From: an uncultured virus (IMG/VR IMGVR_UViG_3300033074_001668)
Lineage: Duplodnaviria > Heunggongvirae > Uroviricota > Caudoviricetes
IMG/VR virus record: IMGVR_UViG_3300033074_001668
Length of the DNA stretch: 20,000 bases
Direction: 5' to 3' (one strand)
Shown: piece after piece, positions 1-19,364 of the stretch
Position numbering within the stretch: position 1 is the stretch's first letter
Layout of the letters: every line of letters begins with the position of its first letter
Position numbers and translations under genes: made by a program
The notes under the pieces: model-generated
The model's input: only the letters and a program-made list of their open reading frames with translations
Told to the model about the DNA's origin: nothing
Databases searched by the model: none

Positions 1-1791
1 AATAGGGCGGTAATTAAAGACTTTACTGAAGATATTACTTATAACATTATTACATTATGGATGAAAGTTAATACTTGTAACAAATCTGATGCAATTGAAC
101 AAATGGCATTAAAATATAGTATTAAAATTGACAAAACTGATAAAAAAGAATTTTCTAAATTACAAACAAATGAAACGGTTATAGATTTAATTAAAAGAGT
201 TAATACAGTTGATTTTGTTTATTATAGATTAGCAAATGCATCTAAAAATTGTACAATTAAATCTGTTAAAACTGGAAATTCAAAAACGTTTGATGGATAT
301 AAAATGTTGGCTAGCCACGTTTTAAGATTCCAATTAAAAATTAAAAATCCAGATGAAGAAATGAGAAAAGCATTCGAAGAAGCATTTTTGCAATATGTTA
401 TTATTGATGCATTCGAAGACTTTCTTCCAGGTGGAGATAGAGTATTTGAAGATGATTTTATCCAATATGTTAATATTTGGACAGCATCTGATAGTTATAA
501 AAAATGTTGGGAAGAAGCAGAATCATTACAACCAATGAATATGGATGAGGCATTAAACTTAATTAAAGATGTTTGCCCTACTACATATATATTCTTATTG
601 CAAATTACTCAAAAGGGTGATTTAAAATATTTCTTAAATTGGTTAAATGCTTTATCTAAATTCCAATATCTTCCAATTGTTCCAATCTTCCCTTCTATCG
701 AAGGAGCAGGTAAAAACTTATTTGCAAACGAAGTATTAGCTCCGTACTTAAATAAATGTTATATTACTGTAGCTAATGGTCAAGCAATGCAATCAAACTT
801 TAACTCATTTATGGGATATTCAAACTTAATTATTGCCGATGAGGGAGATTTTACTGGTTCTCGTGAATTTGACCAATTAAAATTATTAACTGGTAATGAT
901 ACGGTTAGGGTTGAGAAAAAAGGTGTTGATGCACAAACAATGGCTAGAAGATTTAATGTATGTATGTTTACGAATGGTACTGAACCAGTTAGACACTCTA
1001 TTACAGATAGAAGATGTGTATACAATAAATTAGAACATACATTAGAAGCAACTTTAACTAAATTAGGCTTTAAATCTATTGATGAATTTAAAGATAAGAT
1101 AGCAGAAGAAATTCATAAGTTTTGGGGAATTATAATTAAAACAAAACTTCATAAACCGTGGATAAATCATAATATTAAAAATGGTCAATACCATTACCAA
1201 ATTTTAATGATGCATCCATTTGGAAAATTAATTTTAAAAATTATTGAAAATAAATGGGACGAAATTTCATTACAATTAAATGAAAAGCAAAAAGAACTTC
1301 AAGATGAAAAAACAAATATGATGTTGTTACAAAATATTGAAAATGCTTTCTTTAATGGCGAAGCACTTCCATTAATTACAATTAATAAATATTTAGATGC
1401 AATGTCTTGGAAATCAAGTACAAGTATTCAAGAGTTTATTAATAGAAATAAACTACAAAATCATGGAATCGAAATTATAGTAGATCATGATAGTATTAAA
1501 ATTAAATTAGATGCTGTTAAGTTACAAGAGTTTATTTTCCAAGAAAATAATCTTTCTGAACTTATTCCAGAATTTGCAGTTGAAAAAATTAAAACATTAG
1601 ATGAATTAAAAGCTGAAATGGAAAAGAAAAGAAATAAGAAAACTCAAACTGGTATTAAAGTAGTAAATAAATATGCAAATGTTCATAATACTACAACTGA
1701 ACCATTTACTGGTCCAGGTTCTGAATCATTTGGTTCTGCACCTAAGTTTGATCCTTCTACAATGCCTACTCTTCCAGGTGGAATAAAATAA
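1..1791 (+). CDS. SF3 (D5/NrS-1-like, DUF5906-type) primase-associated helicase, 5'-truncated by window edge
   Basis: Walker A SIEGAGKN, Walker B IIADE, LKLLTG..VRVEKKG, motif C MFTN, Arg finger DRR. Frame 1 is open from base 1 (NRAVIKDFTEDITYNIITLWM), so the true start is upstream of the window. Pro/Gly-rich C-terminal tail. Confidence 0.85.
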   Translation, partial: NRAVIKDFTEDITYNIITLWMKVNTCNKSDAIEQMALKYSIKIDKTDKKEFSKLQTNETVIDLIKRVNTVDFVYYRLANASKNCTIKSVKTGNSKTFDGYKMLASHVLRFQLKIKNPDEEMRKAFEEAFLQYVIIDAFEDFLPGGDRVFEDDFIQYVNIWTASDSYKKCWEEAESLQPMNMDEALNLIKDVCPTTYIFLLQITQKGDLKYFLNWLNALSKFQYLPIVPIFPSIEGAGKNLFANEVLAPYLNKCYITVANGQAMQSNFNSFMGYSNLIIADEGDFTGSREFDQLKLLTGNDTVRVEKKGVDAQTMARRFNVCMFTNGTEPVRHSITDRRCVYNKLEHTLEATLTKLGFKSIDEFKDKIAEEIHKFWGIIIKTKLHKPWINHNIKNGQYHYQILMMHPFGKLILKIIENKWDEISLQLNEKQKELQDEKTNMMLLQNIENAFFNGEALPLITINKYLDAMSWKSSTSIQEFINRNKLQNHGIEIIVDHDSIKIKLDAVKLQEFIFQENNLSELIPEFAVEKIKTLDELKAEMEKKRNKKTQTGIKVVNKYANVHNTTTEPFTGPGSESFGSAPKFDPSTMPTLPGGIK

Positions 1792-1800
1792 GGAAAGAAA

Positions 1801-3123
1801 GTGAAAAATACTGTAATATTAGAAATGACGGAGTTGGTAGATAACTCCGATTTTAAAGGTTTACCAAGAGTAACTAATCCCCAAACATTTGGACAGAATA
1901 ATATTCCAACTCCAGATGGTTTGTACTCGGAAATTATTTTTGGTAGAAACCTAAAAGATCAAAGTTCAAAATTTGCATATATTGAATTAGGAACATTAAT
2001 TCTTAGTCCAGACGTTTATAATAATATTAATAGATTAGATCCATTATTTAAAAAGATTATTGATCCAAAAATGGAAACAAAAGCTATTTTACAAAATGGA
2101 ATTTTAATTGAATCTGATAGTGGGAAACGTGGTGCTGGATGGTTACATTCAATATGGGATCAAATTGATTTTGATAAATACCAAAAACCTGGTTTAAAAG
2201 ATAATTCATATCAATTTAAAGAACTTAAAAAAGAGCAATTGTTCTTAACGAAGTGGATTGTAATTCCTCCATTATTTAGACCATATATGGAAGAACGAGG
2301 GGTAATGAAAGAAGATCATATTACTGGTCTTTATAAAGAGATTTTGAGATTATCTACAACACAAAAAGGTCAAAATCCCTATCTTGATAAATTACTTGAT
2401 AATAATTCTAAGTCGGAATTAATTCAATCAAAAATTATTGAATTACATGATCATATAATTAGTTTAATTGATAAATCTACTGGAGCTCAGGAACAAAAAT
2501 TAGTTGGTAAAAGACAAAATAATGTTGCAAGACTTGTTGCAAATGCATCTCCAAGAATTCCATTAAGTGGGGTTGGTTTACCGTGGCATTATTTATTAGG
2601 ATTATTTGATAAACATGTTATTGCAGAAATTCAAAATTCTAAACAAAAAGAAGAAATTTTTAAAATTTTAGAATTACCAATGAATACTACTCCAGAAGAA
2701 TTTGGTCAATATTTTGATTACGTTGCTAGAAATGCAGATGTTTATACTGAGAGTCCTGGTGGAGATAAAAAGAAACAATTATTTATTGATTTACTTATGG
2801 ATATATTTGAAAAAAATCCATCATTAAAAGTAATGCTTAAACGGGATCCAGCGTGGGATAAGTTTTCTTATCATTCATTAAATCCAATTATCATTACAAC
2901 TAATGCTTATCACGTAGTAACTAACTCTATGATTTATAAACCAATTGGTGGAGATAGTTTTACTACAAAAGTTTGTGGGATGATTCAACCAATTAGAAAT
3001 TCTATTTTAATTTCTAAAGAAGTTCCAAAAAGTAAAACAAAATATCAGATTAAATTAATTGATAAAAATAAAGCGATTACTATGAAATCAATGCAACATT
3101 ATATGGAAAAATTAATTAAATAA
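1801..3123 (+). CDS. rpoC: DNA-directed RNA polymerase beta' subunit, N-terminal part (clamp + DPBB) with degenerate catalytic motif
   Basis: Collinear beta' motifs: DGLYSEIIFG, AYIELG, VIPPLFRP, LVGKRQNNVAR, VGLPWHYLLGLF, VMLKRDP (= VLLNRAP), IYKPIGGDSFTT (aligns to VCAAYNADFDGD). GTG start with AAGGA RBS. Confidence 0.9.
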   Translation: MKNTVILEMTELVDNSDFKGLPRVTNPQTFGQNNIPTPDGLYSEIIFGRNLKDQSSKFAYIELGTLILSPDVYNNINRLDPLFKKIIDPKMETKAILQNGILIESDSGKRGAGWLHSIWDQIDFDKYQKPGLKDNSYQFKELKKEQLFLTKWIVIPPLFRPYMEERGVMKEDHITGLYKEILRLSTTQKGQNPYLDKLLDNNSKSELIQSKIIELHDHIISLIDKSTGAQEQKLVGKRQNNVARLVANASPRIPLSGVGLPWHYLLGLFDKHVIAEIQNSKQKEEIFKILELPMNTTPEEFGQYFDYVARNADVYTESPGGDKKKQLFIDLLMDIFEKNPSLKVMLKRDPAWDKFSYHSLNPIIITTNAYHVVTNSMIYKPIGGDSFTTKVCGMIQPIRNSILISKEVPKSKTKYQIKLIDKNKAITMKSMQHYMEKLIK

Positions 3124-3131
3124 GGACAACA

Positions 3132-4289
3132 ATGATAGAAAGACATCAGGTTGATAATGGTAATTTTCTAATACCATCTGGAGCTCAGTATCCAGAATGG
3201 GCAATTGATAGAATAAATAAATTCCAGGAGACAATTTATTCTATCTCAAATGCTCATAGAGAACCAAATGAACAAGCTTTAAAATCATTTACCGCTGCCT
3301 TAGAAACATATATAATTCCTGCAGGGGTTAAAATAACGAAAGCTTTAACTAAACCAGAAATAAATAAATTAATCCAATCGTATGCAAAAGTTCTTAATGA
3401 TGAAGAATTTCCAGTATATATTTGGTTATTAATGAATGCTGGCTTTTATTTATCAACAATTCTTCCAACTTGTATAGATGAAGATTCTTTAACTGTTCCG
3501 GAAGTAATAAAAGAACGAAGATTGAAATCTATTGAGGATTTTAAAAAGACTGGGAATAAACAAGCTTATTTAAAAGAGATTCAAGAAATATCAAAAGAAG
3601 TTTTAGTTTATATGACATCTATCGATAATGCTTTTGGGGATTTTATTAATTCTAAAGCAAACGGATCTTTGGACCACATTCAAGAACTATTAGTTGGTAT
3701 TGGATTAGCATTTAATACTAAGGGTGAGATAATTGATACAATTACTAATTGTTTAGTTGATGGTGTTACACAAACGGATTATTTTAGTAAAGGTTCTACT
3801 GGAATTGGTGCATTATTTGCTAAATCAAGTGAAACTGCGAAACCTGGTTATTTAGGTAAAAAATTATCAAATATGTGTGAAAAAGTTAAACTATCAAATG
3901 ATAGAGACTGTGGAACAAAAAGATTGTTAAAAATAAATACTAAAAATAAAGATTTTTTAGAATCATTTATTGGTCAATTATATAGTCCAAAAAATACTCC
4001 AACTGATTTAAAAGAATTTAGTAAAGAAGATATTAGTTCTTTTATTTCTAAAGATATTTATTTTAGAGCTCCACCTTATTGTAAATCTCCTGGACATAAC
4101 ATTTGTTTTAATTGTTATAATCAAGAGTTTATAAGAAACCATAATTTAAAAGCTGGAGATAATATTGGTTTATACGCAAGTACTGGTTTAACTGGAAGCC
4201 TTGTATCATTAACCCTTAAAAAATCTCACGTTGGTATTAACTTAAAAACCGAAAAGGTAAATTTTCTTAAAGATTTAGGAATAGAATAA
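3132..4289 (+). CDS. rpoC: RNA polymerase beta' subunit, second part (funnel, bridge helix, Zn site, trigger loop)
   Basis: SKANGS (= SGARGS), TAKPGYLGKKL (= TANSGYLTRRL), DCGT, RAPPYC..ICFNCY (= RSVVSC..VCAHCY), GDNIG, LTLKKSHVG (= LTMRTFHIG). AAGGA RBS. Confidence 0.9.
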   Translation: MIERHQVDNGNFLIPSGAQYPEWAIDRINKFQETIYSISNAHREPNEQALKSFTAALETYIIPAGVKITKALTKPEINKLIQSYAKVLNDEEFPVYIWLLMNAGFYLSTILPTCIDEDSLTVPEVIKERRLKSIEDFKKTGNKQAYLKEIQEISKEVLVYMTSIDNAFGDFINSKANGSLDHIQELLVGIGLAFNTKGEIIDTITNCLVDGVTQTDYFSKGSTGIGALFAKSSETAKPGYLGKKLSNMCEKVKLSNDRDCGTKRLLKINTKNKDFLESFIGQLYSPKNTPTDLKEFSKEDISSFISKDIYFRAPPYCKSPGHNICFNCYNQEFIRNHNLKAGDNIGLYASTGLTGSLVSLTLKKSHVGINLKTEKVNFLKDLGIE

Positions 4290-4301: not shown

Positions 4302-4622
4302 ATGAAAATATTTATTGCTGAGGGGTATTTAGAAGATACCCCAAAACCAAATAAGATTAAACGTTTATTTATTTGCGAAAAAGAAGAAGACACTATTTCA
4401 AAAACAAATATATCAAATCATCTTAACAAAAATTTTACAATTTCTTTAGATAGACTCGAATTCTTAATTGATTCTGAAGATACATATAATGAAATCTATT
4501 TAGTTGGGGAAGTTTTTTCAACTATTGATATAGAAACATGCGAGGATCTAAAACAAATATGTTATGAGTTGTGGTCTATAGACGAAGAAGATTATACAAT
4601 TGAAGAAATTTTAAAATATTAA
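4302..4622 (+). CDS. hypothetical acidic protein, last gene of helicase/RNAP operon
   Basis: AAGGA RBS, 106 aa, Glu/Asp-rich, no recognised motif. Confidence 0.7.
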   Translation: MKIFIAEGYLEDTPKPNKIKRLFICEKEEDTISKTNISNHLNKNFTISLDRLEFLIDSEDTYNEIYLVGEVFSTIDIETCEDLKQICYELWSIDEEDYTIEEILKY

Positions 4623-4632
4623 AGCAACAAAA

Positions 4633-4661
4633 AATAACCCTCCCATAATGGGAGGGTTATT
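4633..4661. terminator. intrinsic terminator between convergent operons (probably bidirectional)
   Basis: Perfect 13-bp stem AATAACCCTCCCA-taa-TGGGAGGGTTATT. The A-run on the left gives a U-tract on the minus strand. Confidence 0.85.
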
Positions 4662-12031: not shown

Positions 12032-12123
12032 TATTATACGTATATAACTTTACATAAGTATAATTTATTGATTAGCCTGATTTTTCTTTTTCCCATCTTT
12101 CAATCCCTTTTTGTAATTTATTT

Positions 12124-12212
12124 GACAATAATCTTATATGTTTATTGTCTTACTAATTATATAATATCTATGTTAAAAATTTCTTATAATAACTAGTTTA
12201 ATATAGATATTA
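12124..12212. promoter_or_regulatory. divergent promoter region with two inverted repeats
   Basis: GACAATAA-N10-TTATTGTC (12124-12149) and TAATATCTATGTTAAA-N19-TTTAATATAGATATTA (12162-12212, 15/16 match) between divergent operons. Confidence 0.5.
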
Positions 12213-12333
12213 ACACTTACAATCCACCAAATATTATCCAAATTCTAATTTATCCAACCAGATATAAAATTACCATTATCATAGAAATATATATAGTAAC
12301 ATATAAAATATATTTTAACACGAAAGGGACTTT

Positions 12334-14823
12334 ATGTCAAAAATTAATATTAGAAAGAGAGCTGGTCACACAGAACCTCTAGATATTTCAAAAATTAGAA
12401 AAATGACTACAGAATCTACTGATGGTTTAGAGGGAGTATCTCAAAGTGATCTTGAACTTGATGCTCAAATTAAATTCATTGATGGAATGAGTTCATCTGA
12501 TATTCAAGATGCACTAATTAAAACGGCTGTTGAAAAAATCGATATCGATGTTCCAAATTGGACATTTGTTGCGGCAAGGTTATTCCTTTACGATTTATAT
12601 CATAAAGTTGGAAGACTTATTGGTGGAGAAAAAGGTAAACAATATAGCCATTTAAGAGATTATTTAAATTACAATATTGATCATGATAAAGTTTCGCCAG
12701 TATTTGGTTTTGATTATAAAGATGGAATCAAATATGAATTATATGATTTAGATGAATTAGATAAATATATTGATCCAAAAAGGGATTTATTATTTAACTA
12801 TCTTGGTGTAAAAACAATTTTTGATAAATATCTTGTTAAAAATGAGAATGGTGATTGTAGTGAATTACCACAGCATATGTTTATGGCTATTGCAATGTTC
12901 CTTGCTCAAAATGAAGATAACCGAATGGAAAGAGCAAAAGAATTCTATGATGTTATTTCAAAAATGGAAGTTATGTTAGCAACTCCAACTTTAAGTGGTG
13001 CAAGAAAACATAGAAATCAATTAAGTTCATGTTTCATTGGAGCAGCTCCAGATAACATTGAAGGAATTTTTGATTCATATAAAGAAATGTCATTATTATC
13101 TAAATATGGTGGTGGTATTGGTTGGGATTGGAATCAAATTAGAGCAATGGGTGGAAATATTGATAATAATAAATCTGCTGCAGGTGGAACGGTTCCATTC
13201 TTAAAAATTACAAATGATATTGCTTTAGCGGTTGACCAACTTGGTGTAAGAAAAGGTGCAATTGCAGTTTACCTTGAACCTTGGCATATGGATATAGAAG
13301 ACTTTATAGATCTTAAAAAGAACTCTGGTGAAGATAGAAGAAGAGCTCATGACCTATTCCCTGCTTTATGGATTCCAGATTTATTTATGGAAAGAGTTTT
13401 AGAAGATGGGCAATGGACATTATTTGACCCACATGATACTCCTGATTTACACGGTTTAATGTCGGAAGAATTTGATAAAGCTTATATTGCTTATGAACAT
13501 AATCCAAATATTAGAAAAGTTACAATTAAAGCAAAAGACTTATGGAAAAAAGTTTTAACTTCTTATTTTGAAGTTGGTAGCCCATTCTTATGTTGGAAAG
13601 ATACGGCAAATAGAGCTAACCCGAATCCACATGTTGGAAATATTAAGTCTTCAAATTTATGTACTGAAATTTTCCAAAATACATCTGCAAATAAATATTT
13701 AATGAAATTATATATTGAAGATGATAATGGTTCAAATGAACATTATTTAGTAGAAGAAAATACTACTATGATTTTAATTAATGGTTCTCATAAATTAGCT
13801 AAGAATGCAAATTCTTTAGATACAGTTATTGGATTTAAAAATGATGAAGATATGGACTTCTTAGAAGAACCATTTAAAATTTATACGGTTGAAAAAGAAG
13901 TAATTCCAGGTGAAACAGCTGTATGTAATTTAGCATCAGTAAATCTTTCAAGAATTAATACAAAACAAGATATCGAAAGAGTTATCCCAACTGCAGTTAG
14001 AATGTTAGATAATGTTGTATCATTAAATTATTACCCAACTAAAAAAGCTAAAGATACTAATATGGCATCAAGAGCAATTGGTTTAGGTGTAATGGGTGAA
14101 CATCAAATGATAGCTGAAAAAAGTATTAAATTTGGTTCTCAAGAACATTTAGATTTAATTGATCATATTATGGAAGCAATTTCTTATAATACAATTCTTG
14201 CAAGTACTGTACTTGGTCAAACAAAAGGTAATTATAAAAACTTTGAAGGTTCAAATTGGTCTAAAGGAATTTTACCTCATGATCATGCAAATCACTATGT
14301 TATGGAATTAACATCTTCATCTAAATCAACAAATGTTTATACTAATGGTGAATGGGACCAATTAAGAGAAAGAACAAAAAGATTTATGAGAAATGGTTAT
14401 TTGATGGCTATTGCTCCTACTTCGTCAATTTCTATTTTAGTTGGAACAACTCAAGCAATTGAACCATGTTATAAAAGAAAATGGTATGAAGAAAATATGA
14501 GTGGTTTAATTCCAGTTGTTGTACCAAATTTATCTCCAAATACTTGGGAATTCTATACTCCAGCATTTGAAATAGACCAATTACAAGTTATTAAAGCTGC
14601 AGCAATTAGACAAAAATGGATAGATCAAGGTCAATCTACAAATATTTTTATGAGCTTAGATAAAGCAAGTGGGAAATATTTACATGAGATTTATACATTG
14701 GCTTGGAAATTAGGACTTAAGTCAACTTATTATTTAAGAAGTCAATCTCCTGATTCATCTAAAGCGGAAATGAAAAAACCAGATGTTGTTGATAGATCAA
14801 TGGAATGTTCTGGGTGTCAATAA
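12334..14823 (+). CDS. nrdA: ribonucleoside-diphosphate reductase class Ia alpha subunit with N-terminal ATP cone
   Basis: ATP cone (IRKRAG..EPLD), ATPTL, QLSSCF, GGGIG, SSNLCTEI, VCNLAS, APTSSIS, KSTYYLR, C-terminal CSGCQ. Confidence 0.97.
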   Translation: MSKINIRKRAGHTEPLDISKIRKMTTESTDGLEGVSQSDLELDAQIKFIDGMSSSDIQDALIKTAVEKIDIDVPNWTFVAARLFLYDLYHKVGRLIGGEKGKQYSHLRDYLNYNIDHDKVSPVFGFDYKDGIKYELYDLDELDKYIDPKRDLLFNYLGVKTIFDKYLVKNENGDCSELPQHMFMAIAMFLAQNEDNRMERAKEFYDVISKMEVMLATPTLSGARKHRNQLSSCFIGAAPDNIEGIFDSYKEMSLLSKYGGGIGWDWNQIRAMGGNIDNNKSAAGGTVPFLKITNDIALAVDQLGVRKGAIAVYLEPWHMDIEDFIDLKKNSGEDRRRAHDLFPALWIPDLFMERVLEDGQWTLFDPHDTPDLHGLMSEEFDKAYIAYEHNPNIRKVTIKAKDLWKKVLTSYFEVGSPFLCWKDTANRANPNPHVGNIKSSNLCTEIFQNTSANKYLMKLYIEDDNGSNEHYLVEENTTMILINGSHKLAKNANSLDTVIGFKNDEDMDFLEEPFKIYTVEKEVIPGETAVCNLASVNLSRINTKQDIERVIPTAVRMLDNVVSLNYYPTKKAKDTNMASRAIGLGVMGEHQMIAEKSIKFGSQEHLDLIDHIMEAISYNTILASTVLGQTKGNYKNFEGSNWSKGILPHDHANHYVMELTSSSKSTNVYTNGEWDQLRERTKRFMRNGYLMAIAPTSSISILVGTTQAIEPCYKRKWYEENMSGLIPVVVPNLSPNTWEFYTPAFEIDQLQVIKAAAIRQKWIDQGQSTNIFMSLDKASGKYLHEIYTLAWKLGLKSTYYLRSQSPDSSKAEMKKPDVVDRSMECSGCQ

Positions 14824-17671: not shown

Positions 17672-18334
17672 ATGAAAGCGCAAATTAATGGAATCGAAAT
17701 TCCGTGGTCAGTAACTACATTAGAGCAATTACAACAATCTCCAGGTTTTATGGAATTATATTTACATTGTGAAGACGAATTAGAATTAATTGAAACATTT
17801 ACGAATGGGTTTAATTATCTAAAAGGTCAAATCGTTGAAATAAGTCTTACTGGATTTGGTAGAGTACCAGCTATCGTAACTAAAGTTAATGATAGAGATG
17901 AAAATGGTCATCTGACTTATGATATTGTAATTCTGCTTGGTGAAAGAAATAAGAGTGCAATTAGAAGTGAAGAAAGATACTTATGGAGATTTACAGAAAA
18001 AGCTGATGAAAATACTATTAAAAACTTCAATACTGTAATTGAAACTTTATTTAATCCAAATTATGGATATGATGAATTCTTCATTAAAGATTTTGAAATT
18101 GATACAATTTGTTATTTATCTGAAACTGCTATCGTAAGTTATAATTTGAATCAAATTAATCCTAAAAAACCAGATATTGGTAGAGGACTTGTTCGAAGCG
18201 AATTTATGAATTTTGGACTACCAAACAGAGGGCAAACTTCTAGCATAGTTAATGTAGATGAATGTCCTTTTACTGAGGGGAAAACTTTATCTGAAATATG
18301 TGGAAAAGAGGTTGATGATAATGAACATTACTAA
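17672..18334 (+). CDS. hypothetical protein
   Basis: 220 aa, AAGGA RBS. Confidence 0.7.
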
Positions 18335-19364
18335 TGTACAAATAGAAAAGAAAATTATTTATAATCCGGATTCAAACGAAAGTTTGAATGATCGACGGGT
18401 TTTTGGTGGAAATAGTGATGGTATGATTAACTTCACTAAAATGAAATATCAATGGGCTTTAAATCTTTGGGATACTATGGAAGCAAATACTTGGTTCCCA
18501 AGAGAAGTTCAAATGACTGGTGATGCAAAAGATTATAAATTATTATCTGAACCAGAAAAGAGAATGTATGATTTAGTTTTAGCACAACTTATTTTTATGG
18601 ATTCATTGCAAACAAACAACCTTATGGATAATATTAATCCATATATTACTGCTCCAGAAATTAATGCTTGTTTAAGTAGACAATCTTATGAAGAAGCGAA
18701 TCACTCTAAATCATATGCAGTTATGGTTGAATCAATTTCTGATAATACTGATGAAATTTATAATTTGTGGAAAACAGATGAAAAATTAAGAGAAAAGAAT
18801 TCATTTATTGCTTATGTTTATTTAGAGCTATCTCGTGGTGAAATGATCAATGAAAAAATTCTATTAGCTTTATTTGCAAATCAAATTCTTGAGGGAATTT
18901 ATTTCTATTCTGGCTTTGCTGGATTATATGCTTTAGGTAAATCTGGAAAAATGCTTGGCTCTTCGCAAATGATTAGATTCATTCAAAGAGATGAAGTTAC
19001 ACACCTTTTACTTTTCCAAAACATGATTAATGCTACAAGAAAAGAAAGACCAGAATTATTTACAGCTGAGTTAGAAGAAAAAGTAAGAAATATGTTCAGA
19101 AAAGCAGTAGAGTTAGAATCTTCTTGGGGACATTATATTACTCAAAATCAAATCTTAGGATTAACTGATCCAATTATTACTCAATATGTTCAATACCTTG
19201 CAGATAAAAGACTTGAAGCAGTTGGATATAAAGCTGAGTACGGTGTTAAGCATCCTATTCCGTGGGTTGATGGATATTCTAGTTTTAATGATCAAAGAAC
19301 TAATTTCTTTGAAGGTAATGTAGTAAATTATTCAAAAGGGTCAATTGACTTTGATGATTTCTAA
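18321..19364 (+). CDS. nrdB: ribonucleoside-diphosphate reductase class Ia beta subunit
   Basis: [20 protein letters not shown] (radical Tyr), [20 protein letters not shown]...Y. Start re-called at 18321 behind GAGG. Confidence 0.96.

Follow-up and report, generated by a model that had tools for sequence, protein, structure and literature searches.

The Catalytic Motif of the Phage RNA Polymerase Gene

The window, i.e., the whole 20,000-nucleotide stretch of viral DNA analyzed here (27% G+C, phage-like), carries an RNA polymerase beta' gene in which the Mg-binding motif DxDGD appears to be missing. This raises the question of whether the encoded polymerase is catalytically dead, uses a rewired metal site, or obtains the rest of its motif from another protein. 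ORF 1801-3123 on the plus strand encodes a 440-aa protein (P0002) containing ...NSMIYKPIGGDSFTTKVCG..., and bases 2947-2967 read ggt gga gat agt ttt act aca (GGDSFTT), with D385 at 2953-2955. The preliminary description had reported GGDSFTT in place of DxDGD, D385 as the only Asp of the motif present in the ORF as encoded, and no DxDGD in the other frames nearby or in the next gene; these observations were confirmed by the bases and by conservation in the family. No D.DGD, [DE].D[GA]D, or [SCT]DG[DE] in an RNA polymerase context was found in the six frames of the window, the next gene included. The layout of the window is given in Table 1. The primase/helicase gene, which is truncated by position 1, is separated from ORF 1801-3123 by ten bases, and the latter from ORF 3132-4289 by nine bases. 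Both beta' ORFs have AGGA 8-10 nt ahead of the start codon, in agreement with the ribosome-binding sites noted earlier.

Table 1. Positions of the features discussed in the text.
Feature	Position	Strand	Remarks
Primase/helicase gene, 3' part (596 aa)	1..1791	+	DUF5906, E 7.6e-14; DNA primase PHROGs 1829 and 1156
Predicted N-extein: beta' N-terminal subunit to the first catalytic Asp, residues 1-385	1801..2955	+	
KRDP, residues 347-350	2839..2850	+	Conserved RxP element of the beta' double-psi barrel
GGD, predicted final three N-extein residues	2947..2955	+	D385 = first Asp of DxDGD, putative intein position -1
Predicted split-intein N-fragment, residues 386-440 (55 aa)	2956..3120	+	Ser386 = putative intein residue 1
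beta' C-terminal subunit (P0003, 385 aa)	3132..4289	+	PHROGs 2962 and 3015
Bridge helix	3822-3857	+	Inside the beta'-C gene
Trigger loop	4200-4235	+	Inside the beta'-C gene
Small acidic ORF (P0004)	4302-4622		After beta'-C
Class I ribonucleotide reductase genes	12334-14823 and 18258-19364		

P0002 matched the jumbo-phage "RNA polymerase beta" family PHROG 2986 (E 4e-26) along residues 22-247 only. When it was used as a tblastn query, jumbo-phage beta' genes were matched in 152 phage records, the best being those of Listeria phage LPJP1, Fusobacterium phages, and AR9 (g145), and none of the matches went beyond residue 321. The AlphaFold model of P0002 (pLDDT 77.5) was most similar in Foldseek to the beta'-N chains of the AR9 nvRNAP (7s01_d and 7s00_d, E 1e-13), and bacterial beta' subunits were also retrieved. 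Structural alignment with VIA-align against the beta' of AR9 nvRNAP and of bacterial RNA polymerases gave Z scores of about 16. Many of these alignments placed residues 11..381 of the model on residues 23..456 of E. coli beta' and ended exactly where the catalytic loop should begin, which is also the place of the motif. The gap-free alignment to the E. coli loop that had been proposed earlier holds for GGD, which is homologous, but SFTT and FDGD correspond merely in position. A MAFFT alignment of P0002 with three canonical proteins left the catalytic loop unaligned.

The motif was conserved among homologs. Of 62 family members, with identities as low as about 37%, 61 contained the pattern [GA][GA]DS[FML] and one had GGDAF. 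G-D-S was invariant in the N-piece alignment (A5), and K-R-D-P was invariant in all 37 aligned N-pieces and was also present in the nearest canonical relatives. Contigs of four further runs, belonging to four studies of wastewater and freshwater metagenomes, spanned the site. In the rows shown (259 further rows belong to the same comparison), the sole indel listed was at 4641, and there was no base difference at 2929-3074. A blastn search with both beta' genes against the phage collection gave no match, and no relatives of the two beta' alignments were found in the genome contigs. Because all but one of the 62 members share the motif and independent contigs bridge it, it is genuine and reflects neither an error nor recent decay.

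Three States of the Site in Related Proteins

A profile (HMM) search with the N-piece family against 1.84 billion representatives gave 2887 matches at E <= 0.001, and the best 150 of these were sorted according to the state of the site. About 20 of the best 150 resembled the window protein, having 36-80 aa beyond GGDS, which is the range of tail lengths across the family. The sorting had assigned 22 to this split form, including a false pattern match (P0258) and a variant with Cys at position 1 (P0149). Another 87 were canonical and contained D.DGD, and 37, mostly fragments, had neither motif. The nearest canonical relatives among the best 150 (P0151, P0187, P0208, and P0255; about 430 aa, with KRDP) contained GGDSDGD.

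The four remaining proteins of the best 150 were longer, with 176-488 extra residues placed directly after GGD and ending in Asn followed by SDGD or SDGQ. With a slash marking each junction, these were GGD/CLKGN...CN/SDGD (P0184), GGD/CVKGN...CN/SDGD (P0215, with LAGLIDADG_3 within the insert, E 6.8e-12), GGD/TFKGK...CN/SDGD (P0172), and GGD/SILGN...AN/SDGQ (P0177, ended by the contig edge). These inserts are contiguous inteins in the catalytic loop. They share with the window protein the insertion point (after GGD and before SDGD) and a homologous host protein, and their C-terminal blocks, YD[FL]T...N/SDGD, are similar to those of the partner family described below. On the other hand, each is a single polypeptide with Cys, Thr, or Ser at position 1 and with Cys or Ala before the terminal Asn, whereas the halves in the window family are separate genes and the break lies about 55 residues into the intein.

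The SFTTKV... of the window protein occupies the place of the first residues of the contiguous inteins. The N-piece profile aligned with the contiguous-intein forms with an hhalign E of 3e-52, running 14 residues past GGD; the 55-aa tail alone gave no significant sequence match past about 14 residues. AF2 modeled this tail as four beta-strands and one helix, unlike the strand-helix tail of canonical beta', at low model confidence that extended to the junction loop (381-389). These comparisons indicate that beta' homology stops at GGD (D385), that the residues from Ser386 onward are the N-fragment of a split intein, and that the catalytic loop is interrupted rather than mutated or replaced. The wording of the preliminary description, that NADFDGD was "replaced by" GGDSFTT, is therefore misleading.

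The SDGD-Bearing Partner Gene

The fetched loci were scanned in six frames for [SCT]DG[DE]. The scan found ...KN/SDGDIL... in an ORF of 378-423 aa on the same strand, upstream of the primase gene. This ORF, in which KN/SDGD was followed by a beta' tail counted at 56-59 aa, was present in all five related contigs whose sequence covers 4.5 kb or more on the upstream side of the N-piece (G001, G002, G003, and the contigs of L015 and L016). The gene order was the same in all five, i.e., partner, primase/helicase (1021-1086 aa at full length), N-piece, and beta'-C, and in L015 these genes are separated by short gaps only, suggesting a single operon. The earlier idea of a motif completed in trans was thus right in outline, as in all these relatives the SDGD and the beta' tail reside on a separate, intein-bearing protein.

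A search with the L015 partner (P0281) found 101 proteins. All 102 partner-family proteins examined contained KN/SDGD followed by a C-extein of 56-64 aa ending in DDAILGLY..TK. Across 40 aligned partners, H37 (near the N-terminus), D344 (in YDxT), N365, and S366 (P0281 numbering) were invariant, as was the string K-N-S-D-G-D-I. The partner C-extein was similar to canonical beta'-N over the final 68 residues of the latter (BLASTP E 5e-4). The C-terminal 83-103 residues of the partner could be aligned with the contiguous forms across the end of their intein and the beta' tail that follows it (BLASTP E 4e-6; hhalign E 1.3e-10, probability 96.9). Matches to the Pfam family Intein_splicing (PF14890) were below the 35.8-bit cut-off for P0375 (E 5e-6, 26.8 bits), P0377 (E 6.8e-6), and P0282 (E 0.014), and P0281 and P0287 had no match to this family. 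The residue ahead of the terminal Asn of an intein is usually His; it is Lys in the partner family.

The AF2 model of P0281 (pLDDT 84.6, pTM 0.80) had a disordered C-extein, as expected of a piece that belongs in another protein. Foldseek ranks 1-14 for this model were all endonuclease-bearing inteins, with PI-PfuI first (E 9.5e-7) and TliVMA, PhoVMA, PI-SceI, and PI-TkoII also among them. In VIA-align, residues 2..365 of the model were matched to positions 36..429 of the TliVMA intein, which has 432 residues (Z 14.4, rmsd 4.2, 296 aligned). The model was also aligned on PI-PfuI (39..454 of 454), the RadA intein (39..174), and the Aes123 PolB1 split intein (9hth_B; 36..166, Z 11.6), and comparison with about 25 mini-inteins gave Z scores of 9-12. 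According to these alignments, the partner starts 20-40 residues into an intein and Asn365 is the last intein residue; the missing intein start is what the 55-aa tail of the window protein would supply. Residues 128..270 of the model resembled the LAGLIDADG enzyme I-DmoI (Z 6.4). The residue that should be the catalytic acid of the first LAGLIDADG-like helix was not constant (Tyr, Leu, Phe, Met, or Glu); therefore, the endonuclease-like domain is probably degenerate.

Proposed Split Intein and Alternative Explanations

Taken together, anatomy, homology, fold, conservation, and gene order in relatives make it very probable that the beta'-N of one of the multisubunit RNA polymerases of this phage is encoded in two pieces that are cut inside the Mg-binding loop and carry the halves of a naturally split intein; we further infer trans-splicing and the presence of the partner in this genome. 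The N-piece (ORF 1801-3123) would consist of N-extein residues 1-385 ending in GGD and a 55-aa intein N-fragment starting at Ser386. The C-piece (about 430 aa), encoded upstream of the primase/helicase gene, would contain the remainder of the intein with its LAGLIDADG-type endonuclease-like domain, ending in Lys-Asn, and then a 58-aa C-extein starting with SDGD. The steps proposed here are based on the established chemistry of class 1 inteins. The two intein fragments would associate, Ser386 would attack the carbonyl of D385, the acyl group would move to Ser+1 of the partner, and the terminal Asn would cyclize. The residues that this chemistry would use are conserved: position 1 is Ser in 61 of 62 N-pieces (Ser386 in the window; Ala in one), and Asn followed by Ser at +1 is present in all 102 partners, i.e., those from the relatives and P0388. 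Splicing would yield a beta'-N of about 443 aa (385 + 58), close to the size of canonical relatives (431-445 aa), that acts with the beta'-C subunit encoded at 3132-4289. Joining GGD of the N-piece to SDGD of the partner produces GGDSDGD, which is also the loop sequence in the nearest canonical relatives among the best 150 matches. The DxDGD loop would exist in the spliced product, while the ORF as encoded lacks it. The layout is unusual in that the C-piece comes first, the two halves are separated by the primase gene, and the C-fragment has kept the endonuclease-like domain.

The other active-site elements listed in the preliminary description (KRDP, GKR, the bridge helix, and the trigger-loop His) were present and conserved. 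In beta'-C, the bridge helix KSSETAKPGY and the trigger loop LTLKKSHxG were invariant in 26 sequences at 34-89% identity, which would fit an active polymerase, not a dead one. This conservation speaks against the earlier proposals of a selected, catalytically dead beta' paralog (clamp, decoy, or replisome partner) or of a rewired metal site; under these, the upstream SDGD protein would be functionally unrelated. In their favor, the ORF as encoded has one of the three Asp, the gene adjoins a primase/helicase gene, and a related contig encodes a canonical beta' (NSDYDGD) and a beta, so that transcription need not rely on the window copy. However, the residues after GGD are better read as the start of an intein fragment than as a changed loop, which speaks against both versions. 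Furthermore, the missing SDGD and beta' tail lie behind an intein end on a syntenic protein, relatives carry contiguous inteins at the identical point, and the tail after GGD is predicted to be all-beta, unlike beta'. A dead or rewired enzyme is therefore very improbable.

A complex that no longer splices is a closer competitor, although still an unlikely one. The intein-derived pieces would bind each other non-covalently, and the enzyme, with its loop held by the folded intein, would either work or merely assemble. The Lys instead of His before the terminal Asn, the Pfam intein match below threshold, and the one member with Ala at intein position 1 are consistent with such a loss of splicing. 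In contrast, Ser1 in 61 of 62 N-pieces together with the terminal Asn and Ser+1 in all 102 partners would be hard to explain without splicing chemistry, and an intein of about 420 residues in the Mg-binding loop would occupy the active-site cleft. An assembly or sequencing error, or recent gene decay, has a negligible chance of explaining the site, given the occurrence of the motif in nearly all homologs and the independent contigs that bridge it. The split intein with trans-splicing is thus the preferred explanation. Two other candidates within the window were considered and rejected. The small acidic ORF (P0004), a candidate for an acidic donor in trans, follows beta'-C in the close relative L015 but not in the distant L021, and had no family match. 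The N-terminus of beta'-C (..QVDN/G..), a candidate for the intein end, has Gly at +1 and no DGD after it.

Genomic Link and Other Polymerase Genes

The partner gene is predicted to lie outside the window, since the primase gene is cut at position 1, and should be about 1.5 kb or more upstream. For this reason, the split loop is undetectable from the window alone. One partner of the P0287 cluster, P0388 (430 aa, ending ...ILKN/SDGDILTM...), and the beta'-C of the window are each on record on a 73,576-bp contig, the equal size serving as a proxy for identity. A scan of viral contigs with P0388 found nothing. The records for a 236,063-bp contig include a partner (P0398), an N-piece (P0058), and a beta'-C (P0071). 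Gene order in the relatives and the matching record, as a proxy, thus provide an indirect link of the partner to this genome. Further members were on contigs of up to 309-316 kb, indicating that the phage is a jumbo phage.

A related 92-kb contig (33% complete) encoded one beta subunit (801 aa) and, as a gene of its own, a full-length beta' containing NSDYDGD. The six-frame search of this contig for DxDGD found only this canonical beta', which is a different gene. The phage therefore probably has two polymerases, like phiKZ and AR9. No cognate beta subunit was found within the window. P0069 of the 92-kb relative (461 aa) was considered as a second beta'-C and rejected, as it has only the Zn-cluster part in common and lacks the bridge helix and trigger loop.

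Comparison with Known Systems and Significance

Split inteins are already known from phage-like "fractured genes", including those of gp41, NrdA/NrdJ, IMPDH, DnaE, ligase, and terminase (Dassa et al., 2009; PMC2677866). These systems and the window family have in common an essential phage enzyme encoded in two intein-bearing genes, a conserved catalytic insertion site, predicted trans-splicing, and a homing-endonuclease element. They differ in order, being N-part, free-standing homing-endonuclease gene, and C-part in the fractured genes as described there, and C-part, primase/helicase (about 1,050 aa), and N-part in the five contigs of the window family. The endonuclease-like domain of the window family lies inside the C-part, in contrast to the free-standing genes of that description. 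Furthermore, the host is a multisubunit RNA polymerase beta', unlike the hosts named in PMC2677866, in which "RNA polymerase" does not occur. In the jumbo phage MIJ3, a putative split intein resides in PolB (PMC6892783). Both this host protein and the layout, with the N-part first and an HNH endonuclease gene between the halves, differ from those of the window family.

The Aes123 PolB1 intein is reportedly cysteine-less and atypically split. The PolB16 OarG intein is described, in the part of the source available, as cysteine-less and atypically split with a 15-aa N-fragment (Pasch et al., 2023; PMC10189870). To the extent of these partial descriptions, both share with the window family Ser instead of Cys nucleophiles, a split near the N-terminus, a short N-fragment, and a C-fragment with most of the HINT fold. 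The N-fragment is longer in the window family (55 aa in the window and 36-80 aa in the family, compared with the 15 aa given for PolB16), and the C-fragment (about 365 aa) contains a LAGLIDADG-like domain. The host is an RNA polymerase instead of the DNA polymerase B given for PolB16 and Aes123, and the window family is known from sequences and models.

The division of beta' into N and C subunits is common to the window phage and to the multisubunit RNA polymerases of the phiKZ and AR9 type, as presented in the available portions of two reviews (PMC7598289, PMC7824862). In these portions, DxDGD is described as universally conserved and no intein in an RNA polymerase gene is mentioned. In the jumbo-phage papers found to mention inteins, these are located in other genes. 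AR9 g145, annotated as a virion RNA polymerase subunit, is interrupted by introns, i.e., at the DNA/RNA level, whereas the window gene is interrupted by an intein. The literature search, which did not extend to subscription journals or intein databases, found no account of an intein within a multisubunit RNA polymerase of a phage. The element is thus of a known kind in a new host protein, namely the catalytic loop of a multisubunit RNA polymerase.

If trans-splicing occurs as proposed, the gene only appears to depart from a catalytic motif that ranks among the most conserved in biology. For annotation, a "missing" phage active site can be a split intein with its other half kilobases away and in swapped order, and both automatic annotation and a 20-kb window miss such a distant half. 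Phages from wastewater and freshwater supply 60 or more N-pieces and 102 partners, which would make this a large family among the few naturally split inteins known. Judging from the sequences, Ser at both nucleophile positions would make this intein cysteine-independent, and this property and the N-terminal split site are both sought by protein engineers. A more speculative and rather unlikely extension is that trans-splicing is a licensing step and not simply the tolerated scar of a parasitic element, or that the N-piece and/or the excised endonuclease-bearing intein has a job of its own beside the primase. If licensing were true, the beta'-N precursor would be catalytically inert until it met the C-piece, and a virion-type polymerase would become active only at a set time or place, e.g., during head assembly or after injection.

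Variation at the Catalytic-Loop Site

The first Asp of DxDGD in phage beta' looks like a hot spot for intein insertion, judging from the sequences of related proteins. Three further variants at this site were found among the best 150 of 2887 profile matches to the N-piece family (P0149, P0224, and P0207; slashes mark junctions). P0149, from another lineage, carries a short Cys-1 N-fragment with a 37-aa tail (GGD/CVNY...), while the other two variants, also from other lineages, comprise QGD/SVIGC... and a contiguous insert, GAD/CSWDE...Q/CDGD.

Architecture of the beta' Genes

The GTG assigned as the start of the N-piece may be wrong; the Met equivalent to residue 9 is the first residue in many homologues. 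The N-piece and beta'-C genes are separated by 9-10 bases, or overlap, in the window and in the related loci L005 and L015, and by 1.6-2.3 kb in two distant relatives (L004 and L006). In a 25,314-bp contig from sequencing run X4, which elsewhere follows the window, 62 bases at the 3' end of beta'-C are replaced by 1,210 different ones. The insertion is specific to this strain, lies close to the trigger-loop region, and is possibly another mobile element.

The acidic ORF downstream of beta'-C is kept in L015 (a 71%-identical relative), is not conserved in distant relatives, and had no match in a family search. A small C-terminal-most beta' piece is known in virion RNAPs, and this ORF might be such a piece. 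In L021, a 514-aa ORF lies directly 3' of beta'-C. P0069, encoded by the related 92-kb contig G001, shares with beta'-C only the Zn-cluster segment (PHROG 3015, E 5e-15, residues 201-291), and lacks the bridge helix and trigger loop.

Coordinates of the features discussed
Feature	Length	Location
Assigned N-piece start, GTG		window 1801
Alternative N-piece start, ATG		window 1825-1827
Replaced segment of beta'-C		window 4197-4260
Very acidic ORF, 3' of beta'-C	106 aa	window 4302-4622
N-piece/beta'-C separation		L004 11209-13530; L006 11197-12788
P0069	461 aa	G001 12060-13445
Fragmented DNA polymerase and topoisomerase II genes, endonuclease ORFs and queuosine-type genes of G001		L013 14632-18230; L014 7364-8620 and 9813-11069; L012 9477-15108

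Selfish Elements and DNA Modification

The phage group of G001 is heavily colonized by selfish elements. In G001, the DNA polymerase is divided among no fewer than four distinct ORFs. Topoisomerase II is also encoded in pieces, and HNH/homing-endonuclease ORFs are interspersed among these gene fragments. These phages may also modify their own DNA; G001 harbors queuosine-type genes (QueC/D/E and GTP cyclohydrolase).
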